Assembly (NCBI GenBank): GCA_009841725.1 | Contig: VYGS01000046.1 | Coordinates: 31,780 to 72,888, forward strand | Reading direction: 5' to 3' | From: Gammaproteobacteria bacterium | GTDB taxonomy: Bacteria; Pseudomonadota; Gammaproteobacteria; Arenicellales; Poriferihabitantaceae | Length of the DNA stretch: 41,109 nucleotides | Shown here: positions 1 to 34,214 of the stretch, piece after piece | Layout of the letters: each line of letters begins with the position of its first letter | Position numbering within the stretch: position 1 is the stretch's first letter | Position numbers and translations under genes: made by a program | Notes under the pieces: model-generated | Seen by the model: only the letters and a program-made list of their open reading frames with translations | Database searches by the model: none | Told to the model about the DNA's origin: nothing

Positions 1-669
1 CAATTCAAAAAAAACCTCGAAGCGTCCCGGGGGAATATTGTCACCGGCATCAATATCGGCAAGAATGCCACCACCCCGGTCACCGACGCGATCCACGACT
101 ATCTGGAATGCCTGCGGGGCGTTTATGCGCTGGCCGACTACATCGCGATCAACATCTCCTCCCCCAACACCGAAAGCCTGCGACGGCTCCAGGATCACGA
201 CATGCTGGATGCGCTCCTCGAGGCTCTCGACCGGGAACGCCGTCAACTCGCCGACCGGACCGGAGTCCGCAAGCCGCTCATCGTCAAGATTGCTCCGGAT
301 CTGGATACCCGCCAGATCGACGCCATTGCCGCCTCGATGCGAGCCCATTCCATCGACGGCGTGATCGCCACCAATACCACGGTATCGCGCCCCGGGGTCG
401 AAAATCACCCCTTCGCGGGGGAAGCGGGGGGCCTGAGCGGCGCTCCGCTCAGGGAGTCGTCCACCCGGGTGGTCAGGATGCTGCATGACAACCTCCAGGA
501 CGAAATTCCCATCATCGGCGTCGGCGGAATCCTCGACGGCGAGGCCGCCCTTGAAAAACTCGAGGCGGGTGCGCGCCTGATCCAGCTGTATACCGGCCTG
601 ATCTATTCCGGGCCGGCCCTTGTCGGACGGATTCTGAAAGAGCTGGAGAAAGTCCGTCCGGCGACGTGA
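1..669 (+). CDS. pyrD: Quinone-dependent dihydroorotate dehydrogenase (5' truncated by window edge)
   Basis: Frame 1 is open from base 1 and reads GINIGKNATTP, YIAINISSPNT, VKIAPDL, ATNTT, GGLSGAPL, IIGVGGI, QLYTGLIYSGP, all class 2 DHODH motifs. Confidence 0.96.
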   Translation, partial: QFKKNLEASRGNIVTGINIGKNATTPVTDAIHDYLECLRGVYALADYIAINISSPNTESLRRLQDHDMLDALLEALDRERRQLADRTGVRKPLIVKIAPDLDTRQIDAIAASMRAHSIDGVIATNTTVSRPGVENHPFAGEAGGLSGAPLRESSTRVVRMLHDNLQDEIPIIGVGGILDGEAALEKLEAGARLIQLYTGLIYSGPALVGRILKELEKVRPAT

Positions 670-759
670 TCCATACAGCGGCTGCCTGCGCCCGGCGTGA
701 CACCCGGACAAAAGTTGTTGTTAGAATATTGGGGCCCGCCTCTGTCCATGCCGATCCGA

Positions 760-1352
760 TGAATCACAACCGAAACCACTCCGGCATCCATACCGGCGAA
801 AGCGCCCGGTTCGTTTTTCCATTCATCCTCTCGCTCTGCCTGATGGGGCTTGTCCTGGTTCCGTTGCCCGGCAAGGCCGATCTCGTCAAGGAGCAGCAGA
901 CAATACGAAAACAGTATCCCGGTGTCACCCACATCAGCGCCGATCAGCTTCAGGACGCGCTCGTCGGCGATGAAGCGGAGACCGTCCTGTTCGACGTGAG
1001 GGAAAGGGCCGAGTACGCCGTCAGCCACATCGAAGGCGCGATTCAGGTCGATCCCGACATGTCGGGGGAGGAGTTTCTGGCCCGTTACGGAGACCGGATC
1101 GGGAATCGCAAAGTGGTGTTCTACTGTTCCGTCGGATACCGGTCCTCGCACATGGCGGAGCTCCTCCGGAACCAGTCTCCGGCCGACCCTCCGACAGATG
1201 TCCTGAATCTGCGCCACGGTCTTTTCGGCTGGCACAACGAAAAAAGGAATCTGGTTCGGGGCGACTCCCCGACCGACTTGATTCATCCGTACAACTTCTG
1301 GTGGGGACGGCTGCTGGAACGTCGGAATCTGACCAGCTACCGGCCCAGATAG
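760..1352 (+). CDS. Exported or membrane-anchored rhodanese-like domain protein
   Basis: Hydrophobic N-terminal segment, DVRERAEYAVSHIEGA, active-site loop YCSVGYRS. Start uncertain (666/748/760); a TGnTAGAAT extended -10 at 719-727 favours the downstream starts. Confidence 0.85.
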
Positions 1353-1380
1353 TGCCGGGTCAACGGACTCGACGCGACCC

Positions 1381-2286
1381 ATGAACGCCGTGCTCAATCC
1401 GCCGCGCATTTTTCCGGATGAACGGCACTATCAGGCCTGGAAAAACCTGAAACTGGCCGGATACGACCCGAAGCATTCGAATGCGCCCGTCAACATCGCG
1501 AATCCCTTCAATCTGAGACGCGACGAGACCGCTCAGGTCCTCGACCGGATCCGACGACGGAATTTCGCCCTGTACCGGCTTGATCCGGAACGGTTCAATA
1601 CCCCGCAAGCCGTGAAGGCGCTGTGTCGGCACATGGGCCTTGAGACCTCCGTCGACAGTCCGGAAGCCGGCGAAGACAACGTCTCGATTCTCGAGGACCG
1701 GGAAGAATCCTCCGGACACCCCAGCCGGTACATTCCCTACACATCCCGGACCCTGAACTGGCATACCGACGGCTACTACTACCCGGAGGGCCGGAAAATC
1801 CGCTCCTTCGTGCTGCATTGCGCCCGCCCCGCCCATTCGGGCGGAGAGAACAGCATGATCGATCATGACATGCTGTATCTGGAAATGCGGGACCGCGACC
1901 CGGATCTCGCCGACACCCTGTGCCTGAGCGATGTGCTCACCATTCCGCAAAACAGGGAGAACGGCCGGATTCTGCGAGACGCCTTCCAGGGACCGGTGTT
2001 CTCCACCGACCACGACAGCCGCCTGTACATGCGCTATACCCGCCGCAAGCGCCACATTGCCTGGAAAAACCATCCGCAGGTCAACGAGGCCCTGGAACTT
2101 CTGGATTCGTTGCTCGACAACCCCCTCCCGTGGAAATCGACAGTCCGGCTGGCGGCCGGAGAAGGCATCCTGTGCAACAACATCGTGCATCGGCGATGCG
2201 CCTACACCGACGTCTCCGGCGGGAAAGCCGGACGGCTGTTCTACCGGATCCGCTTCCTCGAGCGGGCGGGCACTGGCGGTTCCTGA
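1381..2286 (+). CDS. TauD/TfdA-family Fe(II)/2-oxoglutarate dioxygenase-like protein
   Basis: HxD motif (LNWHTDGYY), LHCARPAHSGGEN, distal His in CNNIVHRR, terminal RLFYRIRF. Confidence 0.8.
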   Translation: MNAVLNPPRIFPDERHYQAWKNLKLAGYDPKHSNAPVNIANPFNLRRDETAQVLDRIRRRNFALYRLDPERFNTPQAVKALCRHMGLETSVDSPEAGEDNVSILEDREESSGHPSRYIPYTSRTLNWHTDGYYYPEGRKIRSFVLHCARPAHSGGENSMIDHDMLYLEMRDRDPDLADTLCLSDVLTIPQNRENGRILRDAFQGPVFSTDHDSRLYMRYTRRKRHIAWKNHPQVNEALELLDSLLDNPLPWKSTVRLAAGEGILCNNIVHRRCAYTDVSGGKAGRLFYRIRFLERAGTGGS

Positions 2287-2378
2287 AGGAATCGGGGTGA
2301 ACGCCGCGACGCCGGAAGCGGGTTGCTCCGGATGGCACTGTGGTAAGCTTGTTTCGAATCGACCTCTCTTGAAGCGAC

Positions 2379-3068
2379 ATGCTCTGGAAAGAAAAAACCC
2401 CGGGCCGATCCGGACGGATGGCGGACAGGGTGCAGGATTTTTCGTTTCGGATCGCATGCCGGGAGCTTCCCGTCGATCATGCCTGGGCATTGCGTGAGCG
2501 GATCGTCGGCATCCTTCCCTGGCTGGTGGATGAGCCGAAGGCCGCCATCCATTCGGTCCATGCGGCGTCCTCGGCAAACGGATGGATCCGTCCTTCGCTG
2601 GAGTCCGGCAGCATGATCCAGCTTTCCCGCCGAACCCGGCTCTATCTCAGGCTTCCCGCACACCGGATCGAGGACGCCCGGGCACTCTGTGGCAAGGAAT
2701 TCACCGTCTCCGGATGCACGATGCGCATCGGCGACTTCGAACCGCGAAGTCTGGCTCCCTCGAGCACCCTCTTCACGCGATCGATGGATGCGGCGGAAGT
2801 GGAGGACGAGGAGGTCTTCACCGACATCGTGGTCGGTTCGCTCGAAGAGCTGGGTGTCTATCCATCCAAGATGCTGTGCGGACTCATGCACGGGATTTCA
2901 CATGGAAACGGGTGCATCAAGGCGAGAAGCGTGTTGCTTGCGGATCTCGAACCCCGCGAATCGATCCGGATCCAGCAACGGGGCCTGGGAAAGAATGGCC
3001 TGCTCGGCTGCGGCATTTTCCTTCCGCACAAGAGTCTGGATGCGGTCTACGACAAGAGCCGGGACTGA
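2379..3068 (+). CDS. cas6: Orphan Cas6 homologue (type I-MYXAN Cas6/Cmx6-like RAMP protein)
   Basis: LPVDHAWAL, LYLRLP and the C-terminal Gly-rich loop QRGLGKNGLLGCGIFLPHK typical of Cas6/Cmx6. No other cas gene or array in the window. Confidence 0.8.
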   Translation: MLWKEKTPGRSGRMADRVQDFSFRIACRELPVDHAWALRERIVGILPWLVDEPKAAIHSVHAASSANGWIRPSLESGSMIQLSRRTRLYLRLPAHRIEDARALCGKEFTVSGCTMRIGDFEPRSLAPSSTLFTRSMDAAEVEDEEVFTDIVVGSLEELGVYPSKMLCGLMHGISHGNGCIKARSVLLADLEPRESIRIQQRGLGKNGLLGCGIFLPHKSLDAVYDKSRD

Positions 3069-3122
3069 CACGGAAAACCGACTCTGTCCCGCTGATCAAT
3101 GAATCCGGCAGCAGGCATTCTG

Positions 3123-3154
3123 CTCCGATTCGGGCCACCGCATCCGAATCGGGG
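3123..3154 (+). other. Strong hairpin / inverted repeat downstream of cas6
   Basis: CCGATTCGG (3125-3133) and CCGAATCGG (3144-3152) are exact reverse complements with a 10-nt loop; no U tract follows. Confidence 0.55.
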
Positions 3155-3207
3155 GGATATGGGATAAAATGGCGTTACGCCAAACCGACACCGATTGAAA
3201 TTCCGTC

Positions 3208-3780
3208 ATGCTACAGAAGGCCCGAATTCGCACGGCCTGGAAATCCCGGGACCGGACCGTTTCAGTGGACGATCTGGCCAACGCGCTGTCGGCCATCTGC
3301 TGGCGCATTGCCCTGTCGGCGGCCAAAAACCTCCATCAGCAGGATTTCATCTATGCCGACGACGGCCAGCGTCTGGCCGTCATCCGGGAATACCTTTTCT
3401 TCCTGATCCATTGCTCGGACCGGCTGATGCACGATCGGCTCCGGCAAGGTGACCGGGAGACCTTCGTCACCCGGCTTTCGCTCAACTGCCTGAGGCACTA
3501 CGCCGAGAACACGCTGGAACTTCTCGAACGGCAACCCGACATGAAGGAGGCCCTCGATGCGCTGAACCACGTCACGAGCACGCTGGCCGGCTTCCGTTTT
3601 CCGGATCAGCGACCGGGGTATGAAATGTACCGGCTGCTCGGCGCCCGGATCCGAGAAATTCTCGGCGAGGACCAGATCAACAAATGGGTCATCGACCAGA
3701 TCATGGAGGTGGATGGCCCGGAAGTCTTCGACCTGTTTGACAAATCCTGCACGAAACTGGTGCGCAATTCCGGGTACTGA
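3208..3780 (+). CDS. Conserved hypothetical protein (predicted helical)
   Basis: Clean 190-aa ORF ending 3 bp before dsbD; motifs ICWRIAL, QRLAVIREYL and NKWVIDQIMEVDGPE resemble an uncharacterised family I recall from sulfur oxidisers. Confidence 0.75.
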   Translation: MLQKARIRTAWKSRDRTVSVDDLANALSAICWRIALSAAKNLHQQDFIYADDGQRLAVIREYLFFLIHCSDRLMHDRLRQGDRETFVTRLSLNCLRHYAENTLELLERQPDMKEALDALNHVTSTLAGFRFPDQRPGYEMYRLLGARIREILGEDQINKWVIDQIMEVDGPEVFDLFDKSCTKLVRNSGY

Positions 3781-3783
3781 AGC

Positions 3784-6060
3784 ATGCTCCGACTCCTCTC
3801 CAGCCTCCCCGCCCTGCTGCTCGTCCTGGGACTGGCGCCGGGGACGATATGCGGGGCCCTGGCACAAGGGCTGGACGACGACGAACTCCTGCCTGAAGAC
3901 CAGGCGTTCCGCTTCGAGCTCGTTCCGGGCGAGCCCTCCGCGATCCAGGCGACCTGGCGGATCGCGGAGGGATACTACATGTACCGGGACAAGATCGGAT
4001 TTCGCATCGACGATGCGGGATTTTCCGCCGCGGTCCCGGAATATCCCCAGGGCATCATCAAGGACGATCCGCTGTTCGGCGTGACCGAGGTGTACACCGA
4101 CCAGTTCTCGATCCGGATCGATGTCGGGGGCGGGGACGGCGCATTCACCCTGATCTCGGACGGCCAGGGCTGCAACGAGCCGATCGGTGTCTGCTATGCG
4201 CCGATCACCCACACCACCCGCTTCGTCAAGGCCGGCAACACGATCCGGTTCGCATCGCTGGTTTCGACTTCGGAACCGGAAGCGGAAGCCGCTGAAACGA
4301 CGGAACAGGCGCAGGTGGAGGCGGAGGACATCGACCTGCTTCGCGATCTTCTCTCGAGTTCCTTCTCGCAACCCGAATTTCTCGATGTCGACGAGGCGTT
4401 CAGGGTCGAGGATCTCTCGATCGGTCTGCAATCGATTTCCGGCCACTTCGTGATCGAGCCGGGATACTACCTGTACCGGGACAAGGTCGGTGTCATGCTC
4501 GACGAGTTGTCCCTCGCGGTTCGCATACCCCAGGAGCCGGAACAGTACGCCGACCCTACCTTCGGCACCACCGACGTCCATCGGACGGATTTCTCGTTTT
4601 CCGCAAGCCGCCCGACGACCAGCGCGGCCGGACCGGCTGTCGTGACACTGACCTACCAGGGCTGCGCCGAAGGAGCGATCTGCTATCCGCCCGTAACGAG
4701 GCAGTTCAATCTCGTCGCACCGGCAATGGCGGACGAAACCCCGTCCGCCGCGTCTTCGTCAACTCCGGCAACGGAGCAGGATTATTCCCTGATCGCGATC
4801 CTGTCCGGCGCTTTCATCGCCGGCATCCTGCTGACATTCACGCCGTGCGTATTGCCGATGATCCCGATTCTCTCGAGCGTGATCGCGGGACAGGGCGAGG
4901 CAATCAGCCGGACCCGGGCCGGGTCGCTGTCCCTGTCCTACGTGCTCGGTACCGTGATCACGTATGCGGCGATGGGCGCTCTGGCCGGCGCGACCGGCGA
5001 CCAGCTGCAGGCCTACTTCCAGAACGCGTGGGCCATCGGAATCCTGTCCGGTATTCTCGCCCTGATGGCGCTGTCCATGTTCGGCCTTTATGAACTACAG
5101 GTGCCCTCCTTCCTGCAATCCAGAATCCAGCAGAAATCGGGCAGCCTGACCGGCTCCATCCCGCTGGTGTTCCTGCTGGGACTGGTCTCGGCATTGATCA
5201 TCGGCGCCTGCGTCTCCCCGGTGCTGATCTCGATCCTGAGCATTGCCGTGGCCACCGGCGACCCCGTGCTCGGCGCACAGACCATGGCCGTGATGGCGCT
5301 CGGCATGGGCGTCCCCCTGATCTCGATCGGTGTCGGAGCGGGATATCTGCTCCCCAAGGCCGGTGTCTGGATGGAATCAATCAAATACCTGTTCGGCATC
5401 CTGCTGTTCGCGGTCGCGATCTACCTGTTGCAAATCCTGCCCCAGGTGCCGATTCTCCTGATCTGGGGAGCCTATCTCATCATCGTGGGCTATGCCTTCA
5501 TGCAGGCTCGCGCCGAGCCGGACACGCCGAAACATAAATTCACGGTGGTGCTCAAGGGTGTCGGTGTGGTTCTCCTGGTCTGGGGAATCTGCGCACTGAT
5601 CGGCGGATTCATGGGACAACGGGATCTGCTGCGCCCGATCCCGGAACGTCTCTTCACTTCGGGCCCCGCGGCCCTGCAATCAGCCGAAACCCATCTGTTC
5701 GACCGGATTTCGACCGTGGACGAACTGGATCAGCAAATCGTCCAGGCGGCCTCGAACGGACGCGGTGTCATCATCGACTACTACGCCGACTGGTGTGTCG
5801 ACTGCCTCAAGATGGAAGAATCCACGTTCAAGGACAAATTGGTGATCGAGGAGATCGGCAACCGGTTCATCGCCCTGCAGGTGGACGTGACCAACCCGAA
5901 CGATGCAAACGCCAATTCCCTGAAGAAACGGTTCAACGTGTTCGGCCCGCCTGCCATGATCTTTCTTGGCCGGAACGGCACTGTCCTGAGCGACTTCAAT
6001 TTCTACGGATACAAGGGCCCCGAGGCGTTTCTGGAGCATCTCAAGCGTGTCACCCTGTAG
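3784..6060 (+). CDS. dsbD: Protein-disulfide reductase DsbD with two N-terminal Ig-like domains
   Basis: Signal peptide; two nDsbD copies (GYYMYRDK...QGCNEPIGVCYAP and GYYLYRDK...QGCAEGAICYPP); TM domain TPCVLPMIP and GACVSP; thioredoxin domain YADWCVDC. Confidence 0.93.
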   Translation: MLRLLSSLPALLLVLGLAPGTICGALAQGLDDDELLPEDQAFRFELVPGEPSAIQATWRIAEGYYMYRDKIGFRIDDAGFSAAVPEYPQGIIKDDPLFGVTEVYTDQFSIRIDVGGGDGAFTLISDGQGCNEPIGVCYAPITHTTRFVKAGNTIRFASLVSTSEPEAEAAETTEQAQVEAEDIDLLRDLLSSSFSQPEFLDVDEAFRVEDLSIGLQSISGHFVIEPGYYLYRDKVGVMLDELSLAVRIPQEPEQYADPTFGTTDVHRTDFSFSASRPTTSAAGPAVVTLTYQGCAEGAICYPPVTRQFNLVAPAMADETPSAASSSTPATEQDYSLIAILSGAFIAGILLTFTPCVLPMIPILSSVIAGQGEAISRTRAGSLSLSYVLGTVITYAAMGALAGATGDQLQAYFQNAWAIGILSGILALMALSMFGLYELQVPSFLQSRIQQKSGSLTGSIPLVFLLGLVSALIIGACVSPVLISILSIAVATGDPVLGAQTMAVMALGMGVPLISIGVGAGYLLPKAGVWMESIKYLFGILLFAVAIYLLQILPQVPILLIWGAYLIIVGYAFMQARAEPDTPKHKFTVVLKGVGVVLLVWGICALIGGFMGQRDLLRPIPERLFTSGPAALQSAETHLFDRISTVDELDQQIVQAASNGRGVIIDYYADWCVDCLKMEESTFKDKLVIEEIGNRFIALQVDVTNPNDANANSLKKRFNVFGPPAMIFLGRNGTVLSDFNFYGYKGPEAFLEHLKRVTL

Positions 6061-6132
6061 TCGTCCTCCGTCAAGCCACCGCCCGCTGATCCGTATTCTG
6101 ATTACCGTCATGCATCACTTCCGATCAAACCG

Positions 6133-7020
6133 ATGTCCCAAAGACACCCTGTCATCGCAGTAACCGGCTCTTCGGGAGCCGGAACCTCCACCATCAAGGA
6201 TGCTTTCGAGCATATTTTCCGGCTTGAGAACATCAACCCCTGCATGGTCGAGGGAGACAGCTTCCATCGGTATGACCGCGACGAGATGGAGCGGCGCACC
6301 GAGGAGGCCATGCGCGAAGGAACCCATTTCAGCCATTTCGGCCTGCAGGCGAATCTGCTTGAGGAACTCGCGGCACTGTTCGAGGAATACGGAAAGGACG
6401 GATCGGGCCAGCGACGCTTCTACCTGCACGACCGGAAGATCGCCAAACGTCACGGACAACCTGTCGGCACGTTCACCCCGTGGGAGAATATTCCTCCGGG
6501 AACCGCTCTCCTGTTTTACGAAGGGCTGCACGGCGGAGTGGTTCACGATACCGTCGACGTGGCCCGGCACGTGGACCTGCTGATCGGCGTCGTGCCCATA
6601 GTCAATCTCGAATGGATCCAGAAAATCCACCGCGACACTTACGCCAGAGGCTATCGTCCGAAAGACGTCACGCAGACCATCCTGAGGCGCATGCACGACT
6701 ACGTCCACATCATCACGCCCCAGTTTTCCAACACCGACATCAACATCCAGAGAGTTCCGACCGTCGACACTTCCAACCCGTTCATCGCCCGGGACATTCC
6801 CACGTCGGATGAAAGCTTTGCGGTCATCCGGTTTCAGGATCCGGAAAAATTCAGTATTGACTTTCCCTATCTGCTCTCCATGATCCACGACTCGTTCATG
6901 TCCCGCAGGAACACGATCGTCGTGCCGGGCGGGAAGATGATGCTGGCGATGGAGATCATTCTGAAACCGATCATCCGCAGGATGATGGAGCAGCGCCTGC
7001 CGAACGCGGACGGGAGCTAG
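6133..7020 (+). CDS. prkB: Phosphoribulokinase (proteobacterial CbbP/PrkB type)
   Basis: HPVIAVTGSSGAGT, EGDSFHRYDR, LLFYEGLHG, NLEWIQKIHRD, QRVPTVDTSNPF. Confidence 0.95.
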   Translation: MSQRHPVIAVTGSSGAGTSTIKDAFEHIFRLENINPCMVEGDSFHRYDRDEMERRTEEAMREGTHFSHFGLQANLLEELAALFEEYGKDGSGQRRFYLHDRKIAKRHGQPVGTFTPWENIPPGTALLFYEGLHGGVVHDTVDVARHVDLLIGVVPIVNLEWIQKIHRDTYARGYRPKDVTQTILRRMHDYVHIITPQFSNTDINIQRVPTVDTSNPFIARDIPTSDESFAVIRFQDPEKFSIDFPYLLSMIHDSFMSRRNTIVVPGGKMMLAMEIILKPIIRRMMEQRLPNADGS

Positions 7021-7787
7021 CGACTGAATCCGTCGAGCCAGTCGGCCAGCTTCCCGATCATCACATCGCCGTAGCCGCGGAAAAAATGGGTCGCCCCCTC
7101 GACCGGCACCTGCGCCGAGAGCGGATTTCCGTTTTGCCGTAGCAATTCCTGGCGATGGGGCACCATGGCCAGCGGCCGGGGATATTCCCCGGTGCCGTAG
7201 ATATCCAGCACGGGAACGCTCAGCCTGCCGATCGGAAACGGGGTCTTCAGGTCCTGGCCGACGTCGGTGACTCCAAGCCCCATGGCAATGTAACCGTCAA
7301 TCCGCGGTTCCGCTACGCTGTTCATCCAGTCATTCGCCATGTGGACCCCGCAACTGTGGGCGGCCAGGATGATCCGGCTCACGCCCCGGCTCTCGAGGTA
7401 GTCGATCGCGGCCTCAATCCGCGGATGGGCATACCCGAGAATCGGCAGGTAGTCGTAGTATGTCTTCCCCTTGGCCAGGACCGGCATCTGCAGCGACAGG
7501 GTGGCCCAGCCCCGCTCCGCGAGGCCGGTCCGCAGCGGACCGATCAGTTCCTCCTCATCAAGATGGACATCCCTGCCATGAAGGAGGATGACCGTCCCGT
7601 CCGCCTCTTCGACCTCGATGTGAACCGCCAGAAATTCCCGTCCTCCGCCTTCCAGCCATAGCGGCTCGCCCTCGAAGAGATACGGCTCCACCTGCTCGAC
7701 GATGCGCGCTTCCCGCTCGAAGTCGGGAACCTCGTCCGCCCAGGCGGATATTGCGGCACCGCCTGCAGCAAGAAGCAGTGAAAGCAT
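7017..7787 (-). CDS. Exported alpha/beta-hydrolase-fold protein (DUF3530-like)
   Basis: Signal peptide, LLHGR, LRTGLAERGWATLSLQMP, nucleophile elbow AHSCG, C-terminal GATHFF. Alternative start at 7913. Confidence 0.75.
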   Translation of the reverse strand: MLSLLLAAGGAAISAWADEVPDFEREARIVEQVEPYLFEGEPLWLEGGGREFLAVHIEVEEADGTVILLHGRDVHLDEEELIGPLRTGLAERGWATLSLQMPVLAKGKTYYDYLPILGYAHPRIEAAIDYLESRGVSRIILAAHSCGVHMANDWMNSVAEPRIDGYIAMGLGVTDVGQDLKTPFPIGRLSVPVLDIYGTGEYPRPLAMVPHRQELLRQNGNPLSAQVPVEGATHFFRGYGDVMIGKLADWLDGFSR

Positions 7788-7954
7788 GGACCGGGCAAGT
7801 CGCCCGGCAATCCCCGGGCCCGTTCTACCCGGCGGGATTCGCCGCGAAGGAATCCCGCCGCCATGGCGGGCGGGTCCGAATGGCGGCAGAAACGAATCGG
7901 TCACATCTTTCACATCGCGCTCCGGGCAGATCAGAAATCCTGCCCGGATTCATT

Positions 7955-9352
7955 CTACATCAGATGTGCGATCAGTCCCTCGATGCTGTCGCGCGCGTCG
8001 CCAAACAGCATTTTCGTGTTGGGCTTGAAGAACAGGGGGTTCTCGACTCCGGCATATCCACTCGCCATGCTGCGCTTGAGCACGACGACCTCGCGCGCAT
8101 TCCAGGCCTCGATGACCGGCATGCCGGCAATCGGCCCCTCGGGATCCTCGATCGCGGACGGGTTCACGATGTCGTTGGCGCCAATGACCATGACCATGTC
8201 CGTATCCGGCAGATCCTCCTGGATCTCATCCATCTCCAGCACGATGTCATAGGGCACCCGGGCCTCCGCCAGCAGGACATTCATGTGTCCGGGCATCCGG
8301 CCTGCAACCGGGTGGATGGCGAACCGGACGTTGACGCCCTTCTCGCGAAGCCGGCGGGTCAGTTCGTACACGGCGTGCTGGGCATGGGCCACCGCCATTC
8401 CGTATCCCGGCACGATCACCAGGGAATCGATATTGTTGAGCGCCGCGCCGCATTCGTCCAGGGAGATTCCGACCGCGGTCCCCTGGCTTGCGTCCGTGGC
8501 CGCCGAGCTCACCGACTGCCCGCCGAATCCACCCATGATGACGCTGATGAATTTCCGGTTCATCGCCCGGCACATGATATAGCTGAGGATGGCGCCGCTG
8601 GAGCCCACCAGCGCGCCGGTGACGATCAACAGATCGTTCGACAGCATGAAGCCGGTCGCGGCGGCGGCCCAGCCGGAATAGCTGTTGAGCATCGAGATGA
8701 CCACCGGCATGTCGGCGCCACCGATCGCCACGACCATGTGAATGCCAAACAGGAGCGCGATCGCCGTCATGATCATCAGCGCGATCATGCCATAGGAAAT
8801 GCTGTCGGCCTGCAGAAATTCGTAGCCGTACCAGATGCACACCAGCAGGCCGGCCAGATTGACCCAGTGCCGACCGGGCAGCATTATCGGCCTGCTGGTG
8901 ATGAATCCCTGGAGCTTGCCGAAAGCGATCACCGATCCGGTAAATGTCACCGCGCCGATCAGGATGCCCAGGTAAATCTCGACCTCGTGAACGACCTTCT
9001 CGGCACCGGAAAAGAGGCCCTCGCTGCCGAGATAGCTCGAGAAACCCACCAGCACCGCCGCCAGTCCCACGAAACTGTGGAGCAGGGCGACCAGCTCCGG
9101 CATTTGCGTCATCTGGACACGGCTGGCGCGCCAGGCGCCCACCGCTCCGCCCACAAGCATCGGAATCAGGATGTAGACATAGCTCTCGATGTTGTCGTTA
9201 AAGGCCGTCGCCACGATGGCGATCGCCATCCCGATCATGCCGAAAAGATTTCCCCTTCGGGCGCTTTCCTGATGGCTCAGTCCTCCCAGGCTGAGTATGA
9301 ACAGGATGCTGGCCACGATATAGGCGGCCGTGATCACGCCTTGATGCACCAT
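7955..9352 (-). CDS. pntB: NAD(P)+ transhydrogenase subunit beta
   Basis: [64 protein letters not shown]. Confidence 0.97.
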
Positions 9353-21929: not shown

Positions 21930-22256
21930 CTAGACCACGCTTCCGAACGACCTGTCCACGCTCCCGAAAGGCACTTCGAGACCGGCAACCGTGCAACCCT
22001 GGGCAACCGGTCCGCCGGGAAACAGGTAATACAGAAACCGGGTGCCGCCCTTGATGTGGAATTTCTCGTTCAGGGCGTCAACCAGCTCGCGGCGATTGAC
22101 CACCTCGTGCTTGGAGCAGTATTCCTGCAAGGCGGCCACCACCTCCCAATGATCATCGGTCAATTCGATGCCGAGACTCCCTGCACGGGTCAGGGCTTCG
22201 TCAACATCCCATCCCTGGGGGGCGTGCGGAAACATGTCCGGATCGGGCTTGCTCAT
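21930..22256 (-). CDS. TusE/DsrC/DsvC-family protein lacking the C-terminal cysteine (RspA-like)
   Basis: GIELTDDHWEVV, LYYLFPGGPVAQGCTVAGL; ends SFGSVV instead of the CV/CI end; GAGGAG RBS. Confidence 0.85.
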   Translation of the reverse strand: MSKPDPDMFPHAPQGWDVDEALTRAGSLGIELTDDHWEVVAALQEYCSKHEVVNRRELVDALNEKFHIKGGTRFLYYLFPGGPVAQGCTVAGLEVPFGSVDRSFGSVV

Positions 22257-28425: not shown

Positions 28426-29452
28426 ACCCCGTCACCGTATCGCGATCTACATGGAGGCGAACCTGGATTCCGACTACGGCAAGATGGGATTCGGCGTGAT
28501 GCGTTTCTGCCGGAACGAAATCGTCTGCATCGTGGATTCGACGCACGCCGGCAAGACGGTTCGCGAAGCCAGCCCTCTGCCCTATGACCACCCCGTGGTG
28601 GCCGGAATAGACGAGGCTGCGGAAATGGGCGCCGAAGTCCTGGTGCTCGGCACCGCTCCGTCCGGCGGCCGGATCCCGGAGAGCTGGATCGACCCGTTGA
28701 CGAGGGCGATCCGGTGGGGAATGAGCCTGGTAAACGGGCTGCACGATCCCCTGAACGAACGGCTTGGCCATCACCTGAAACCGGGGCAGTGGATCTGGGA
28801 TGTCCGGCAGCCCGGGTTCACGCCGGCGATCGCCTCCGGCCAGGCCGCCACGCTCTCGAACCGGCGCATCCTGATGGTCGGAACCGACATGAGCATCGGG
28901 AAAATGACCGCGGGACTCGAAATCTGGAAATGGATGCGGGATCGGCGACCCGGCATCAGGACCGATTTCCTGGCCACCGGGCAGATCGGGATTACGGTCA
29001 CCGGCACGGGGATCCCGCTGGACGCCTTCAAACTGGATCATGCCTGCGGCGCCGTCGAAACCCTTGTCATGGGCTCGGCCGAAGCCGATGTCGTTATCGT
29101 CGAGGGACAGGGCTCGCTGCTTCATCCCGGAAGTTCCGCCACCCTTTCCCTGATCCGGGGCGCCTGTCCGACCCATCTGATCATGTGCCATCGCGCCGGC
29201 ATGTCGACGCTCAGGGCGCCGTCGAACGTGAAGATCCCCCCGCTGAAGGCGTTTATCGAACTCAACGAGCGGGTCGTGTCGGCTTGCGGGGCGCTGGCCC
29301 CCGCCGTCACCGCCGGGATCGCGCTCAATACCTCGGAACTGGAAGAGGCCGCCGCGCTTGAGGCGATCGGGGCGCTGGAACTCGAGACCGGATATCCGGT
29401 CGAGGATGTCGTGCGCTTCGGCGCCGGAAAACTGGCCTCTCTTCTCGCGTGA
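28418..29452 (+). CDS. DUF1611-family P-loop protein (DgcN-like D-glutamate N-acetyltransferase)
   Basis: GKM..GV.R, NGLH, VGTDMSIGKMT, ATGQIGI, VEGQGSLLHP; paired with the epimerase. Confidence 0.88.
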   Translation: MLEPRHRIAIYMEANLDSDYGKMGFGVMRFCRNEIVCIVDSTHAGKTVREASPLPYDHPVVAGIDEAAEMGAEVLVLGTAPSGGRIPESWIDPLTRAIRWGMSLVNGLHDPLNERLGHHLKPGQWIWDVRQPGFTPAIASGQAATLSNRRILMVGTDMSIGKMTAGLEIWKWMRDRRPGIRTDFLATGQIGITVTGTGIPLDAFKLDHACGAVETLVMGSAEADVVIVEGQGSLLHPGSSATLSLIRGACPTHLIMCHRAGMSTLRAPSNVKIPPLKAFIELNERVVSACGALAPAVTAGIALNTSELEEAAALEAIGALELETGYPVEDVVRFGAGKLASLLA

Positions 29453-29576
29453 ACCCTCCGCACGGAGGATGCCCGGTCTTTCGGAATTTATCGATTATGA
29501 CATTGAAATCTGGCTTCATGATAACATCAGTGCTTTCTTCCAAATATCAAATTACAGTCTCTCATCAGCATGATCA

Positions 29577-30284
29577 ATGAAACCACTCAATGATTTATCA
29601 GTTGAAGATTCTGGAGATATGTGTGCCAAGCTGAATCAAATTGACGTTACCATACCGCCTCGGACACAAGGAAGAACCTCGCAGCACAGAGAAGCGCGGG
29701 TGGCACGTGATTTTCTTGAAGTGATCTCAGATACGGACCTGCTTAACTATCCCCTACACATAAGACATCAAGACAGACCTGATTTCCTCTTGTCGTCCCA
29801 AGGCAGAACGACGGGTATCGAGATCACCGTATGCGAGCATCCAGATGCATCAAGAGCAGACGCATACTCCGAGAACAAGGGGTTATCAGGTATCCAAGGC
29901 GTGCCATCATATCGTATTGGAGAACAACGTTCTCGTAAAGAAATAAGGGCAATTGCGACAGGAAACGCCAACATCTACCCTGCTATGGGGAGGGAATGGG
30001 AAGATAACTGGATTGATGCCATAGTGGACTCGGTGAAGAAAAAGGACGGGAAGTTCAGGTCTGAAGAATTCGGGAAGCATGACAGAAACTGGCTACTTGT
30101 TTATGACAACTGGAGTCCTTATCCTACCGATCTGGACGATCGGGATTTCGAACACCTCGTCAATCGGTTACATGGGAGTAGCTGTCAAAATACTTTTGAC
30201 AAGGTATTCATTCTTAAGCGGAATTCCTATGGACTTTTGGAGTTTTCTCCCAAGTCAATGAAATATGTCGAGTATCCAATTTAA
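29577..30284 (+). CDS. Hypothetical protein with a PD-(D/E)XK-like nuclease signature
   Basis: HQDRPDFLL...TTGIEIT pattern, later KKK and WLLVYD; the nuclease assignment is motif-level only. Confidence 0.5.
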   Translation: MKPLNDLSVEDSGDMCAKLNQIDVTIPPRTQGRTSQHREARVARDFLEVISDTDLLNYPLHIRHQDRPDFLLSSQGRTTGIEITVCEHPDASRADAYSENKGLSGIQGVPSYRIGEQRSRKEIRAIATGNANIYPAMGREWEDNWIDAIVDSVKKKDGKFRSEEFGKHDRNWLLVYDNWSPYPTDLDDRDFEHLVNRLHGSSCQNTFDKVFILKRNSYGLLEFSPKSMKYVEYPI

Positions 30285-30300
30285 GATTTCTTATCGAACA

Positions 30301-31413
30301 ATGCTATCGCCCACAGACAATCAAGAAGAACAAATTGAAGGTCTCGGGAAACCGGACGACTTACAAACAACCGATTACCCGCTTGATGACATCATGGTTC
30401 GCTCTGAAACGCGAGCCGTCGGGGATGTCGTCAGACGCATAGAGGGCAATCGATTTCTCATGGATCCTGATTTTCAACGCGATTTTGTATGGGAACCAGC
30501 GCGCCAGTCGAAGCTCATCGAGAGTTGCATAATGCGTATTCCCCTTCCGGTCCTGTACGTTGCGGAAGGCATTGACGGCCGTATCGTTGTAGTGGACGGG
30601 CTGCAAAGACTGACTACCTTCGTCCGATTCATCAAGAACGAATTGAGGCTCACGGGGTTAGGCAAAGACCATCCGCTCCACGGCAAACGTTATTCCGATC
30701 TACCCGTTAATCTACAGGAACGTGTCGAAGACACTCAACTGACGCTCTATATACTCGACAAGAACGCACCACAACGCGCCAAATTGGACATTTTCGATCG
30801 AGTCAACAGTGGCTCTGCCCTGACCCGCCAACAGATGCGCAACGCACTTTACAATGGCATCGGCACGCAATGGTTATCCAAAATGGCCAACCGTACCGAA
30901 TTCCTTGAAGCGACTGGAGGATCTCTGAACAGCAAGACTATGCGTGACCGCGAGGCTGTAAATCGCTTTGCGGCATTCCACGTTTTGGGGGCTGATGCAT
31001 ACCACAATGGAGACATGGACGAATTTCTCGCTCGTACCATTGTGCTCTTGAACGACAAGGACGAGGCGTGGCTCAAACGTCTGGGAAAACGGTTCTGTCT
31101 CTCCATGCGCAACAATCATGTCATTTTCGGGAAGCACGCTTTCCGAAGATCCCTGACCCGGGCGCAGGATCAGCGCTCGCCCATCAACATTTCCCTCTTC
31201 GATGTTTTTTCAACATTATTCTCTGTCACGCCAGAGAAGACAATCAATAACAATGCCGATGAAATTGTGGGCCGTGTCGTAGAACTCGTGAACGACGAAG
31301 AATATGCATATACCGTCACATACTCCACAAACAGCACCAGCCAAGTAAAATCCCGCTTCAACTTGACCATGGAAGCCCTCGGAGACTTTCAGGATTTGGA
31401 GTTCCTCAAGTGA
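30301..31413 (+). CDS. DUF262 (GmrS/ParB-like) protein, Menshen NsnA-like
   Basis: PDFQRDFVW, LIESCIMRIPLP, VVDGLQRLTT, IFDRVNSG. Start 30265 or 30301. Confidence 0.88.
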   Translation: MLSPTDNQEEQIEGLGKPDDLQTTDYPLDDIMVRSETRAVGDVVRRIEGNRFLMDPDFQRDFVWEPARQSKLIESCIMRIPLPVLYVAEGIDGRIVVVDGLQRLTTFVRFIKNELRLTGLGKDHPLHGKRYSDLPVNLQERVEDTQLTLYILDKNAPQRAKLDIFDRVNSGSALTRQQMRNALYNGIGTQWLSKMANRTEFLEATGGSLNSKTMRDREAVNRFAAFHVLGADAYHNGDMDEFLARTIVLLNDKDEAWLKRLGKRFCLSMRNNHVIFGKHAFRRSLTRAQDQRSPINISLFDVFSTLFSVTPEKTINNNADEIVGRVVELVNDEEYAYTVTYSTNSTSQVKSRFNLTMEALGDFQDLEFLK

Positions 31414-32555
31414 CTATTGGACAAATTTCTCTACGAAACTTCAAGTGCTTCAAGGCGCTGGACCTGCCATGTGCACCCCTGACGCTTCTTACCGGCCGCA
31501 ACGGTGGGGGCAAATCAACCGCACTTCAAGCATTCCTGCTACTCGTCCAAGGCCTCCGAGAGGCTCCGAACAATAACCTTCTTCCGCTTAACGGAGCGCT
31601 TGTCAGTCTTGGTACCGGAGGCGATGTGCTCCACTACTCAGCCTCCTCCCAGAAGCTGCGCTTGGGCGTATCAAATTCTGTTGAACAGGCGATCTGGGAT
31701 TTCGAGGTCGATAAAGGCCTCTCAACACGTGGCCTCATGACTCTTACCGACATCAGATACTCTAGAAGCGATGATGCCCTCGATATCTCTAACCACCAAA
31801 TCCGCCCCTCAGAGATGGGAAACTCCGACCTGATCCACTCACTTTGGAACGCCACCTTCATAGGCGCCGGACGGGAAATGCAACTCGAATCCTATCCTGT
31901 TCCTCAGTCACCAGCTCACGTACGTGGAGACGTCGGTCGTTCAGGGGAGTACGCTCCATACTGGTATCTCGAGTTTGCGGATGAAGAGGTCGCCCCCAAG
32001 CGTCGACATCCGAAAGATCAACGAGAGACCGTCCGGGCACAGGTTGATGCTTGGCTCGACGAATTTTTTCCCGGTGCACGCGCTAACGCAGACCGACTGT
32101 CTGCAGACGCTCCCTTACGTCTCTCTTTCAGTCTTGGGAAGACCAGTCCATGGTCGAAACCGGCCAATGTTGGCTACGGCCTCAGTTATGCATTTCCGAT
32201 GCTCGTGACACTGTTGACAGCCGAAGCCGGATCTACTGTTGTGATCGATAGTGCAGAATCCCACCTTCATCCCCAAGCCCAATCTGCTGTCGGTTATCTT
32301 ATTGCAAGAGTGGCTGGCTCAGGTCTGCAAGTCCTGCTCGAATCTCACAGCGACCATCTGCTAAACGGCGTACGACTTGCCGTTCGCGATGGCTTGCTGG
32401 AGCCCAATGATGCCACTATCCACTTCTTCGACCAACCCGCCCAATCTTCCGTGACTACTGTATCGGTAGATAGGAACGGCGCAATCAGCGACTGGCCTCA
32501 AGGATTCTTCGATCAGACAGAGCGGGATCTCGCCGCACTTTCCGGGTGGTGCTGA
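31410..32555 (+). CDS. ABC-type ATPase with C-terminal DUF3696, Menshen NsnB-like
   Basis: LRNFKCF, Walker A GRNGGGKST, VGYGLSY, IDSAESHLHP, ESHSDH, terminal DWPQGFFDQ; GTGA overlap with the upstream gene. Confidence 0.88.
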   Translation: MTIGQISLRNFKCFKALDLPCAPLTLLTGRNGGGKSTALQAFLLLVQGLREAPNNNLLPLNGALVSLGTGGDVLHYSASSQKLRLGVSNSVEQAIWDFEVDKGLSTRGLMTLTDIRYSRSDDALDISNHQIRPSEMGNSDLIHSLWNATFIGAGREMQLESYPVPQSPAHVRGDVGRSGEYAPYWYLEFADEEVAPKRRHPKDQRETVRAQVDAWLDEFFPGARANADRLSADAPLRLSFSLGKTSPWSKPANVGYGLSYAFPMLVTLLTAEAGSTVVIDSAESHLHPQAQSAVGYLIARVAGSGLQVLLESHSDHLLNGVRLAVRDGLLEPNDATIHFFDQPAQSSVTTVSVDRNGAISDWPQGFFDQTERDLAALSGWC

Positions 32556-32563
32556 GCCGCCCT

Positions 32564-33514
32564 ATGCGCATATTCCTGAACGAATTGGCCCTTGCAGAAG
32601 CCTGGACCTCCGCTTCTTCGGCTTGCCGGATTTTGGTCGATATTCTTCATGCACGCCAACAGCAGTCAATGCTCCGTGATTCTCTCTACTGTACTCGGGG
32701 AATGGCATCTGTGCCAATTCCCTCCGGAATACCCCTGTCACATGCGGCGCAGAAACTGCCGCACGACATGCGGATTCAGCTGTTAAGCTGGATAAACAAA
32801 TACGGTCCATTCATCGAAGACGACCGAATAGCTATCTTCGAGGATCTTTTTTTCTTCGAAAATGAAGATGTTACTGAACTAGGTATTGGTGAGGCGGCCC
32901 GACGCATCCGGGCCAAAATCAACACTGCAACCTTAAGCCCGACCGGTAATCTATCCAGCCGCTTTGGGGGTGATGAACTTGACGTTGTACATGGACTGCT
33001 GGAAAACCCCATTGCCCGAATTTCGGTTCCCAACTACACTGACATAAATCGCTTGGTCAAAATACTTGCCGGTCTAGTTCCCGCCCCGAAGAATTGGGGG
33101 GAACTCCTTGAGGTTTGTCGCAGCCGATTCGATTTACTCCACATCGGACCCAATTGCGATAAAACCATAGCTCGTTTCCCCTATATTCCGGCTGCAGGGC
33201 GTCGTATCATCAGCCTGCTTGGTATATTGCAGCAAATCATGACCGAGACGGATAGTGCTGGCCGACTTTCTCAAACCGGACTGGAACTACACAAGAATTA
33301 CTTTACCGGTGAAGAAGCTTGTTTTTCGGACGAATCCGAGTCTCGAAGGAACCAGCCGAAAAAATTCACGTTTCCAGACCCCGATGGCGGAAACAATTTC
33401 GTGTGTTTCTGGCATGGTAAGGTCCGGACTGCCGCGATCAGAATTTATTTCGATTGGCCGGTAGAACCGGGCAAGAGGCGCATCCGTATCGTTTACATCG
33501 GTCCACACATTTAG
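32564..33514 (+). CDS. Putative effector with C-terminal RelE-like domain, Menshen NsnC-like
   Basis: Third gene after DUF262 and the DUF3696 ATPase; starts MRIFLNELAL and ends WHGK...IRIYFDW...IVYIGPHI. Alternative GTG start at 32546. Confidence 0.6.
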   Translation: MRIFLNELALAEAWTSASSACRILVDILHARQQQSMLRDSLYCTRGMASVPIPSGIPLSHAAQKLPHDMRIQLLSWINKYGPFIEDDRIAIFEDLFFFENEDVTELGIGEAARRIRAKINTATLSPTGNLSSRFGGDELDVVHGLLENPIARISVPNYTDINRLVKILAGLVPAPKNWGELLEVCRSRFDLLHIGPNCDKTIARFPYIPAAGRRIISLLGILQQIMTETDSAGRLSQTGLELHKNYFTGEEACFSDESESRRNQPKKFTFPDPDGGNNFVCFWHGKVRTAAIRIYFDWPVEPGKRRIRIVYIGPHI

Positions 33515-33518
33515 ATCC

Positions 33519-34214
33519 ATGGACAATCTCAAGATAGTGGCTTTCGATGTATTCGGCACGGTGGTCGACTGGTACGGCTCGGTCTCCCGGGAGATCGCCT
33601 CGGTCGCCCCGCAAATCGATGCGGACGAATTCACCTTGGCCTGGCGCGGCGGGTACGCCCCGGCCATGCAGAAGGTCGCATCCGGGGAACTTGGCTGGAC
33701 CCTCATCGACGACCTCCACCGGATGATTCTCGATGAGCTGCTGGACCGGTTCGGGGTCGACGGCCTGGACGAAGCGCAAACCGTTCACCTGAACAGGGTC
33801 TGGCACCGCCTCGGCCCGTGGCCGGATTCCGTGGAAGGGCTGGCCCGCCTGAAAACCCGCTACACGATCTGTACGCTGTCGAACGGCAACATGGGCCTGC
33901 TGGCCGACATGGCGAAACGCGCCGGCCTGCCCTGGGACTGCATACTGTCTGCCGAGGTTTTCCGCAAGTACAAGCCCGATCCCGCCACCTATCTCGGTGT
34001 CGCGAAGACGTTTGACGTGGCGCCGGAAGAGGTGATGCTCGCCGCCGCCCACCACGACGATCTGGAGGCCGCCCGGCGCTGCGGCCTGAAAACCGCGTTC
34101 ATCGAACGACCGATGGAATTCGGGCCGAACCGGGGCAACGATATCTCGCCCCGCCCCGGCAACGACCTGCACTGCCGGGATATTCTGGATCTGGCCGAAC
34201 GGCTATCCTGCTGA
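33519..34214 (+). CDS. Haloacid dehalogenase type II (HAD superfamily)
   Basis: AFDVFGTVVDW, WHRLGPWPDS, LSNGN, YKPDP..Y, AAHHDDL.AA. Confidence 0.92.
   Translation: MDNLKIVAFDVFGTVVDWYGSVSREIASVAPQIDADEFTLAWRGGYAPAMQKVASGELGWTLIDDLHRMILDELLDRFGVDGLDEAQTVHLNRVWHRLGPWPDSVEGLARLKTRYTICTLSNGNMGLLADMAKRAGLPWDCILSAEVFRKYKPDPATYLGVAKTFDVAPEEVMLAAAHHDDLEAARRCGLKTAFIERPMEFGPNRGNDISPRPGNDLHCRDILDLAERLSC

Follow-up and report, generated by a model that had tools for sequence, protein, structure and literature searches.

The stretch of DNA considered here, a window of 41,109 nucleotides on contig VYGS01000046.1 of a gammaproteobacterial genome assembly (GCA_009841725.1; order Arenicellales, family Poriferihabitantaceae), opens with a run of seven genes on one strand, in the midst of which lies an open reading frame (ORF) for a Cas6-like protein of 229 amino acids (2379..3068, + strand). 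The protein is derived from the Cmx6/Cas6b type of Cas6 and has no link to a CRISPR system, being associated instead with the dsr genes of sulfur oxidation. The run begins with pyrD (1-669, +), a gene for a rhodanese-domain protein (666..1352, +; PF00581, E 4.4e-15) and a gene for a TauD-like Fe(II)/2-oxoglutarate dioxygenase (1381..2286, +; PF02668, E 1.1e-17) of the family called dsrQ. The cas6-like gene is found 92 nt beyond the end of the TauD-like gene and is followed, after a further 139 nt, by the gene for a conserved protein of 190 amino acids, referred to as hyp190 (3208..3780, +), which is modelled as all-helical. Only 3 nt then separate hyp190 from dsbD, encoding a thiol:disulfide reductase (3784..6060, +; NF001419, E 1.1e-159), and the run ends with prkB (6133-7020, +). 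The map agrees with a preliminary description of this DNA, made from the sequence alone, in which the Cas6 ORF was placed between a TauD-like gene and a hypothetical gene coupled to dsbD in a co-oriented run from pyrD to prkB. Its remark that the GC content is host-like also stands, with values of 0.61-0.62 at the cas6-like locus and of 0.57-0.66 over most of the window.

The ORF at 2379-3068 encodes an intact, real Cas6-type protein of the Cmx6/Cas6b type, just as the preliminary description had it when it spoke of a full-length Cas6/Cmx6-like ORF. The match to the Pfam family PF09559 ‘Cas6’ (E 1.2e-50) reaches 172.6 bits against a cut-off of 26.7, and that to TIGR02807 (cas6_cmx6) reaches 105.8 bits, which is barely over the cut-off of 98.85. 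An AlphaFold2 (AF2) model, built with 35 homologues as input (predicted local distance difference test, pLDDT, 84; predicted template modelling score, pTM, 0.80), predicts two ferredoxin-like domains of the RNA recognition motif (RRM) kind and a C-terminal glycine-rich loop. The top Foldseek matches of the model are all Cas6 proteins, the best being 8fcu_B (E 9.6e-15). This chain and 8fcj_B, which are Cas6 from a type I-B CRISPR-associated transposon (CAST) complex, superpose on the model with TM-scores of 0.72-0.77, and 8fcj_B is the only real match in a sequence search of the PDB (E 1.4e-23). Proteins of this kind are labelled in the databases as ‘type I-MYXAN CRISPR-associated protein Cas6/Cmx6’.

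The cas6-like gene belongs to an accessory set of genes that is found together with the reverse-type dsr operon in Gammaproteobacteria. A pattern scan of species-representative genomes returned at least 599 candidate stretches, of which 584 were confirmed, and the best 80 stretches were taken into a locus survey; these come from the Arenicellales (‘Candidatus Poriferihabitaceae’), Acidiferrobacterales, Chromatiales (Lamprocystis), Thiotrichales, Sulfuricaulis, Sedimenticolaceae and further groups. Within the 80 loci, ORFs were picked by conservation weighting and clustered, the clusters were annotated with Pfam, and the loci are counted out of 79, with L053 excluded as its Cas6 ORF was lost in gene picking. 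The recurrent map has two divergent arms. One runs from dsrA through dsrB, dsrE, dsrF, dsrH, dsrC and dsrM to dsrK, and the other from the TauD-like gene through a gene for a protein of 67 amino acids (67-aa gene), a 235-aa gene, the cas6-like gene and a DsrC-like gene to another 67-aa gene, with genes for a PKHD-type 2-oxoglutarate oxygenase, a DUF6866 protein and hyp190 within a few kb beyond.

In 61 of the 79 loci the TauD-like gene precedes the cas6-like gene by no more than three genes, and in 61, too, the DsrC-like gene follows it within two genes. The dsrAB genes are found divergently upstream in 59 of the 79 and, among the loci that offer at least 5 kb of upstream flank, in 48 of 55; three of the seven exceptions belong to the genus of the window itself. 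The neighbourhood survey proposed in the preliminary description, covering the TauD-like gene, the DsrC-like gene and the hypothetical gene at 3208, therefore reveals an arrangement conserved across related loci. The remark made there, that solo cas6 annotations occur near dsr genes, was right and proved to be the key to the finding.

The association extends to whole genomes. In a sample of 300 genomes drawn evenly over the Gammaproteobacteria and covering 271 genera (one further genome went unscored for the clade profile), a profile of the Cas6-like clade matches 92, and a dsrA model matches 93 of the 301. Both are present in 88 genomes, the Cas6 match alone in four, dsrA alone in five and neither in 203; only the counts are given, with no test statistic, because related genomes are non-independent observations. 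The weakest of the Cas6 matches without dsrA (G081; 118 bits, 30% identity) is a true CRISPR-linked Cmx6 with a 21-repeat array and cas3, and the clade form as such is carried by 91 of the 300 genomes. In the other three (G192, G227 and G317) the accessory set stops at a contig end exactly where dsrA is expected. The hyp190 gene occurs in 90 of the 301 genomes, sharing 88 with the Cas6 match, and hyp190, the Cas6-like gene and dsrA are found all together in 85. A genome of just 1.1 Mb (G247) keeps dsrKMCHFEBA and, divergently, dsrQ, a 67-aa gene, the cas6-like gene, a DsrC paralog, two small genes, hyp190 and a 2-oxoglutarate oxygenase. The genome is presumably that of a reduced symbiont, and its locus (L122; G247:C2:282000-297000) holds the dsr operon and the accessory set in 10 kb.

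The Cas6-like protein belongs to a distinct, vertically inherited branch of Cas6b/Cmx6 that is no longer part of CRISPR-Cas. Among 61 related genomes a single match is found in 41, and identity declines with taxonomic distance, being about 65% at the level of the genus, about 50% at that of the family and about 40% at that of the order. The clade profile, applied at E<=1e-30, gathers about 300 clusters (clustering at 50% identity), while the PF09559 family as a whole comes to 1567 clusters at E<=1e-3. Three cyanobacterial, plasmid-borne Cmx6 relatives are only 24-26% identical to the window protein, and two of them are CRISPR-linked, lying in cas6-cas3-cas8-cas7-cas5-cas4/1-cas2 operons with arrays. 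A quick maximum-likelihood tree was made of 71 proteins, comprising 54 clade rows (the window protein, five locus proteins and every third full-length profile match, 48 of 147) and 17 further rows, namely 14 of 120 cyanobacterial relatives, L113 and L118 as canonical members and the solo gene L114. The 54 clade rows separate from the 17 canonical and solo rows with an SH-like approximate likelihood ratio (SH-aLRT) of 98, in a tree where the canonical sample is narrow and the genomic context was checked for six of the 54 clade rows only.

The tree, which the preliminary description had set as a check, thus leaves the window protein outside the CRISPR-linked Cmx6 rows. The two outcomes named there as fatal to the proposal, a position inside a canonical clade with an array to process elsewhere in the genome and a neighbourhood that is not conserved in relatives, both fail to appear. 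Its central claim, that this is a domesticated, non-defence Cas6, is borne out by the separate clade, the single copy, the near one-to-one occurrence with dsrA and the conserved neighbourhood. Energy metabolism seems, in this case, to have recruited an RNA-handling fold from a defence system.

The window itself holds no repeat array according to Tandem Repeats Finder, and searches with the Cas1, DevR/Cas7, Cas5 and Cas3 families found no match on its contig (C139), in line with the earlier statement that neither cas3/5/7/8 genes nor an array occur in these 41 kb. The genome (G000) is a metagenome-assembled genome (MAG) of 2.61 Mb in 168 contigs, 93.8% complete, and contains one PF09559 gene only. 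It does, however, carry CRISPR-Cas, with a type I-E operon of the order cas3-cse1-(cse2)-cas7-cas5-cas6e-cas1-cas2 on contig C83, where a small ORF takes the cse2 position. The genome-wide array search that had been recommended found no CRISPR array beside this operon or elsewhere in the 93.8%-complete assembly. CRISPR arrays are often lost in assembly. A DevR-type Cas7 of the I-B kind is absent from the assembly and, since the I-E system has its own Cas6e, no plausible effector partner is left for a Cmx6-type gene in this genome. The window gene has neither an array nor type I-B effector or adaptation genes beside it; the related loci carry dsr genes instead. The I-E operon, at about 11.7-20.2 kb of C83 (L002:3681-12214), is complete from cas3 to cas2. 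Its cas2 ORF (146 aa) shares about 345 nt with the 3' end of a UvrD/PcrA-like helicase ORF that converges on it, which could reflect a break in the assembly or decay of the locus.

The genes that travel with the cas6-like gene have features of their own. In the TauD-like protein the H128-x-D130 motif, H270 and R272 are invariant across 35 sequences. A tauD-like gene divergent from dsrA has been named dsrQ, a name that PMC7596348 attributes to Lenk et al. 2012, and is of the same family as the window gene at 1381-2286. The passage in PMC7596348 speaks of the tauD-like gene alone, with sulfite release from sulfonates as a proposed role, and neither Cas6 nor CRISPR is named in that paper. The DsrC-like neighbour ends in KGGY in 59 of 61 copies and has no cysteine in 49 of 61, whereas true DsrC ends in ...GCV. 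An example is L058:7740-8078, which, as in loci across L037-L112, lies just downstream of the cas6-like gene and has a C-terminal ...RKGGY in place of the redox-active ...GCV arm.

For hyp190 the AF2 model (pLDDT 91.4) has six helices. There is no Foldseek match to it at E<=0.001 and none to the sequence in Pfam or NCBIfam, and the VIA match to a Cbp3 homolog (6rwt_A, Z 9.0) is weak, being below the safe level for helical bundles. The C-terminus of hyp190, ...SGY, recalls the GGY tail of the DsrC paralog. A complex prediction for DsrQ, hyp190 and the Cas6-like protein scored 0.00, which has no bearing either way on binding.

In the genus of the window the accessory set has been split, such that dsrQ, the cas6-like gene and hyp190 have moved between the rhodanese gene and dsbD. 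The cas6-like gene of this genome, still beside dsrQ and accompanied by hyp190, is on contig C139 and so is not divergent from dsrA, which is on C121 as part of dsrABEFHC(M) (C121:17938-22462; dsrA TIGR02064, 631.6 bits), with dsrK on C133. Still in place upstream of dsrA on C121 are the second 67-aa gene, a 66-aa gene and a gene for a cupin, and in the same-genus loci L034-L036 there is no dsrAB within 7 kb. The first 67-aa gene, the 235-aa gene, the PKHD oxygenase and DUF6866 were not found in the genome by tblastn at 1e-5. A query with the KGGY paralog gave a single weak match (28.7% identity) to a gene of the window for a DsrC/TusE-like protein (21930..22256, - strand; 39% identity to DsrC in tblastn). 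This protein has no C-terminal Cys, and its translation ends in neither Cys-Val nor KGGY, so it is not the usual KGGY paralog.

The five members of the rhodanese cluster come without exception from the window or from loci of the same genus (L033-L036), and the dsbD cluster has four members; both genes adjoin the set in this genus only. As the arrangement is common only to the one genus, the ‘sulfur/redox gene string’ of the preliminary description is a secondary neighbourhood peculiar to this genus. Since dsrQ, cas6-like and hyp190 have stayed together, these three are the best candidates for a functional core. Elsewhere in the window, at 29000-34000, the GC content falls to 0.48-0.56 compared with about 0.61 in other parts, across co-oriented ORFs at 29577-34214 that may form an acquired island.

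A comparison of 260 clade and 119 canonical sequences indicates which parts of the Cas6 surface have been retained. Both groups retain the Asp33-His34 pair where helix 1 begins (His34 in 245 of the 260 clade members and in 117 of the 119 canonical ones), together with Arg85, Arg91, Arg134, Gln199, the loop cysteine Cys211 and the loop glycines at 202, 204, 210 and 212, these last in at least 95% of the 260 clade members. The clade has also gained residues, including an insert with Trp69 (258 of 260) and Arg71, an Arg or Lys at position 84, Arg96, Lys164 and Arg183, together with Glu144 (258 of 260), His217 (230 of 260) and Lys218 (250 of 260). The glycine loop of the window protein, GLGKNGLLGCG, is without the K-R-R of canonical loops such as GIGGKRRLGCG and GLGGKRRMGCG, where the 119 sequences have K206, R/H207 and R/K208. 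The lack of loop arginines that had been pointed out is real for the window protein, yet it is partly a feature of the genus. In the clade as a whole Arg207 is present in 160 of 260 members, Lys is not among the top three residues at 206, and at position 208 Leu is found in 78 members and Lys in 64. The isoelectric point (pI) of the window protein is 8.24.

A cysteine relay was considered as a role for the protein and rejected. The clade-specific Cys167 is found in only 209 of the 260 members, making such a relay unlikely, and Cys211 is shared with canonical Cas6. The earlier idea of a RAMP fold reused in sulfur handling is, in so far as it depends on cysteine chemistry, weak for the same reason.

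Taken together, the losses and gains are read as a putative RNA-binding face that has been rebuilt rather than abandoned. For this reason a protein that binds, and possibly cleaves, an RNA hairpin in a cellular target is favoured. The Cas6-like protein would still bind an RNA hairpin and perhaps cleave it, its binding surface would have been remodelled for a cellular RNA, and it would act post-transcriptionally on messages of the dsr regulon, for instance on the stability or stoichiometry of the dsr or accessory mRNAs. His34 is a candidate for the catalytic residue by its position, which is where other Cas6 enzymes carry their catalytic histidine. This reading, drawn from patterns of conservation and gene context, is tentative and is held at a little under an even chance. 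A fuller version, in which an ancestor of the gammaproteobacterial sulfur oxidisers captured a type I-B Cas6 endoribonuclease that has become a dedicated dsr-regulon controller, cutting or clamping a hairpin of the message, is rather unlikely in that complete form.

A number of observations count against an RNA-directed role tied to the dsr genes, and the first group of these comes from the distribution of the gene. Not every reverse Dsr (rDsr) system requires the gene. The five gammaproteobacterial genomes with dsrA alone are 78-99% complete. A sample of 301 genomes from the phylum, which is dominated by other families and is informative only when combined with the dsrA search, gave two matches to the clade profile, both within the class, and 57 genomes with dsrA; in the 55 dsrA-positive genomes of other classes no cas6-like gene was detectable. 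Six of these were inspected. Three have dsrABEFHCMK and a divergent dsrQ, and the other three have dsrAB with no dsrEFH nearby. The three dsrQ-bearing genomes contain no cas6-like gene, also by six-frame hmmsearch, and the 67-aa gene is present in two of their three loci (L126, L127 and L129).

It follows that dsrQ and the cas6-like gene are separable, and that the latter joined the dsrQ set as a lineage-specific element of the Gammaproteobacteria. Dsr-based sulfur oxidation does not universally include the cas6-like gene. The clade restricted to sulfur oxidisers that the preliminary description had envisaged is accordingly upheld within the Gammaproteobacteria, where occurrence with dsrA is near one-to-one, and does not extend to the dsrA-positive genomes sampled elsewhere.

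The second group of such observations concerns the protein and its possible targets. Basic residues have been lost in the clade at positions 89, 130, 132, 206 and 208, and the median pI is 6.31 (48 of 260 members above 8) compared with 9.16 in the canonical group (92 of 119 above 8). The CAST Cas6 has Asn at the position of His34. When the spacers that follow the cas6-like gene were folded for the related loci, no shared stem-loop emerged, and Rfam found no match in positions 1-8000 of the window. Hairpins in the dsrC-dsrM gap were tried as Cas6 targets and set aside; their stems differ in sequence and often have T runs, and they are therefore terminator-like. The GC-rich stem-loops that directly follow dsrC in many of the loci L053-L111 look like partial terminators that would raise the dsrABEFHC message over that of dsrMK.

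The absence of an RNA target in the spacers after the cas6-like gene and in the dsr operon suits the main rival explanation, in which the Cas6-like protein has no RNA partner and is instead a protein-binding subunit of the Dsr accessory machinery, acting as an adaptor, chaperone or assembly factor that would hold or present another product of the set, such as the KGGY DsrC paralog, DsrQ or hyp190. Such a role would agree with the near-neutral or acidic character of the clade, unlike canonical Cas6, with the loss of the five canonical basic positions and with the nearly invariant Trp69 insert, Glu144 and His217-Lys218, which have no canonical counterpart. It would also give a purpose to the tight, conserved adjacency to small proteins and the DsrC paralog (61 of 79 loci), and the weak resemblance of hyp190 to an assembly chaperone fold (the Cbp3 homolog) points the same way. 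A pure protein adaptor, however, needs no conservation of His34, Arg85, Arg91, Arg134 and the glycine loop. Moreover, there is no constant partner, as the window genome is without the KGGY paralog, the first 67-aa gene and the 235-aa gene, and in Lamprocystis purpurea DSM 4197, which carries the set, the locus (L097) is without DsrQ. No fused or longer forms of the Cas6-like protein were found either, although that is weak evidence. An adaptor of this kind is judged doubtful.

One conserved non-coding element alone came to light, the palindrome ATCCC-N4-GGGAT. In 34 of 60 loci, the window genome included, it occurs 80-280 nt upstream of dsrA (330 nt searched). In the 2.6 Mb of that genome the strict form has one match, at C121:17742, 196 nt before dsrA. 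A second, similar site is often found about 25 nt away (dsrA-dsrQ spacers of L037-L110). In shape the element resembles the canonical repeat hairpin, which has a 5-bp stem with a GNRA loop, but many copies pair a CCC arm with a GAG arm, giving a C-A mismatch in the stem, and the spacer letters vary freely. The palindrome was for these reasons set aside as a hairpin site for Cas6. Since mismatches and a variable spacer are more in keeping with a DNA operator than with an RNA hairpin, the element is probably the operator of a dsr regulator.

That regulator could conceivably be the Cas6-like protein itself, reading the palindrome either in the DNA or as a hairpin of the transcript and so controlling transcription of dsrA and the divergent set. 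The motif is absent from all three dsrQ-dsrA spacers inspected in genomes without the cas6-like gene, a control of three genomes that is too small to carry much weight, and Pfam assigns a classical DNA-binding domain to none of the genes in the set. Yet the motif is unmatched in 26 of the 60 loci and in the 1.1-Mb genome that keeps the cas6-like gene, the C-A mismatches are more easily reconciled with a tolerant DNA operator than with an RNA hairpin, and Cas6 proteins are not known to bind double-stranded DNA. This proposal is considered improbable. More remote still, and close to refuted, is an ordinary crRNA-processing Cas6, whether a leftover of a lost type I-B system or one serving the I-E operon or an unassembled array, for which membership of the hidden Markov model family and an incomplete MAG with no array assembled for its I-E operon may be cited, but which is at odds with the Cas6e of that operon, the want of an I-B DevR/Cas7, the separate clade, the retention in a 1.1-Mb genome and a single-copy gene syntenic with dsr across many families, CRISPR present or not.

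Should the fuller version, with a captured Cas6 as dedicated controller of the dsr regulon, hold true, Cas6 would have its first described job outside defence, a housekeeping one that is fixed in the chromosome, and the control of dissimilatory sulfur oxidation would gain a new layer. Cas proteins that have gone from immunity to other functions are few and closely watched, and this would add a widespread case that is fixed in core energy metabolism. The set beside dsrAB is kept even by a genome of 1.1 Mb, and the known list of dsr genes would then be incomplete for the Gammaproteobacteria. In addition, the CRISPR label that these genes bear inflates CRISPR counts in sulfur oxidisers and symbionts. 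Full-text literature searches returned no paper that places Cas6 beside dsr, although supplementary files, which such searches do not reach, may list the gene.

The closest known systems are the Cas6b/Cmx6 proteins of type I-B (‘I-MYXAN’), represented by Synechocystis sp. PCC 6714 (L113) and the CAST structures 8fcj and 8fcu. According to PMC11096372, the Synechocystis Cascade, Cas6b included, has been reconstituted and co-purified with a 71-nt crRNA. These proteins share with the window protein the Pfam and TIGRFAM families, the double ferredoxin-like fold, the Asp-His at helix 1, Arg91, Arg134, Gln199 and the GxG...GCG loop. Unlike them, the window protein, which is 24-26% identical, sits in a separate clade and has no array or I-B effectors. 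That clade lacks the K-R-R of the loop and three other basic residues, carries the Trp insert, Glu144 and His217 as extras and has a median pI of 6.3 against 9.2, and its neighbours are dsr genes rather than cas3-cas8b-cas7-cas5.

A second point of comparison is the solo gene on plasmid pGMOR1 of Gloeobacter morelensis (L114), which is likewise of the Cmx6 family and likewise has no cas gene within 9 kb on either side. It differs in that it groups with the canonical members and in that its neighbours are genes for a PAPS-reductase-family protein, a cupin and a DNA methyltransferase. This gene (L114:8974-9765) may represent a separate recruitment of Cmx6, into an island for DNA modification or defence.

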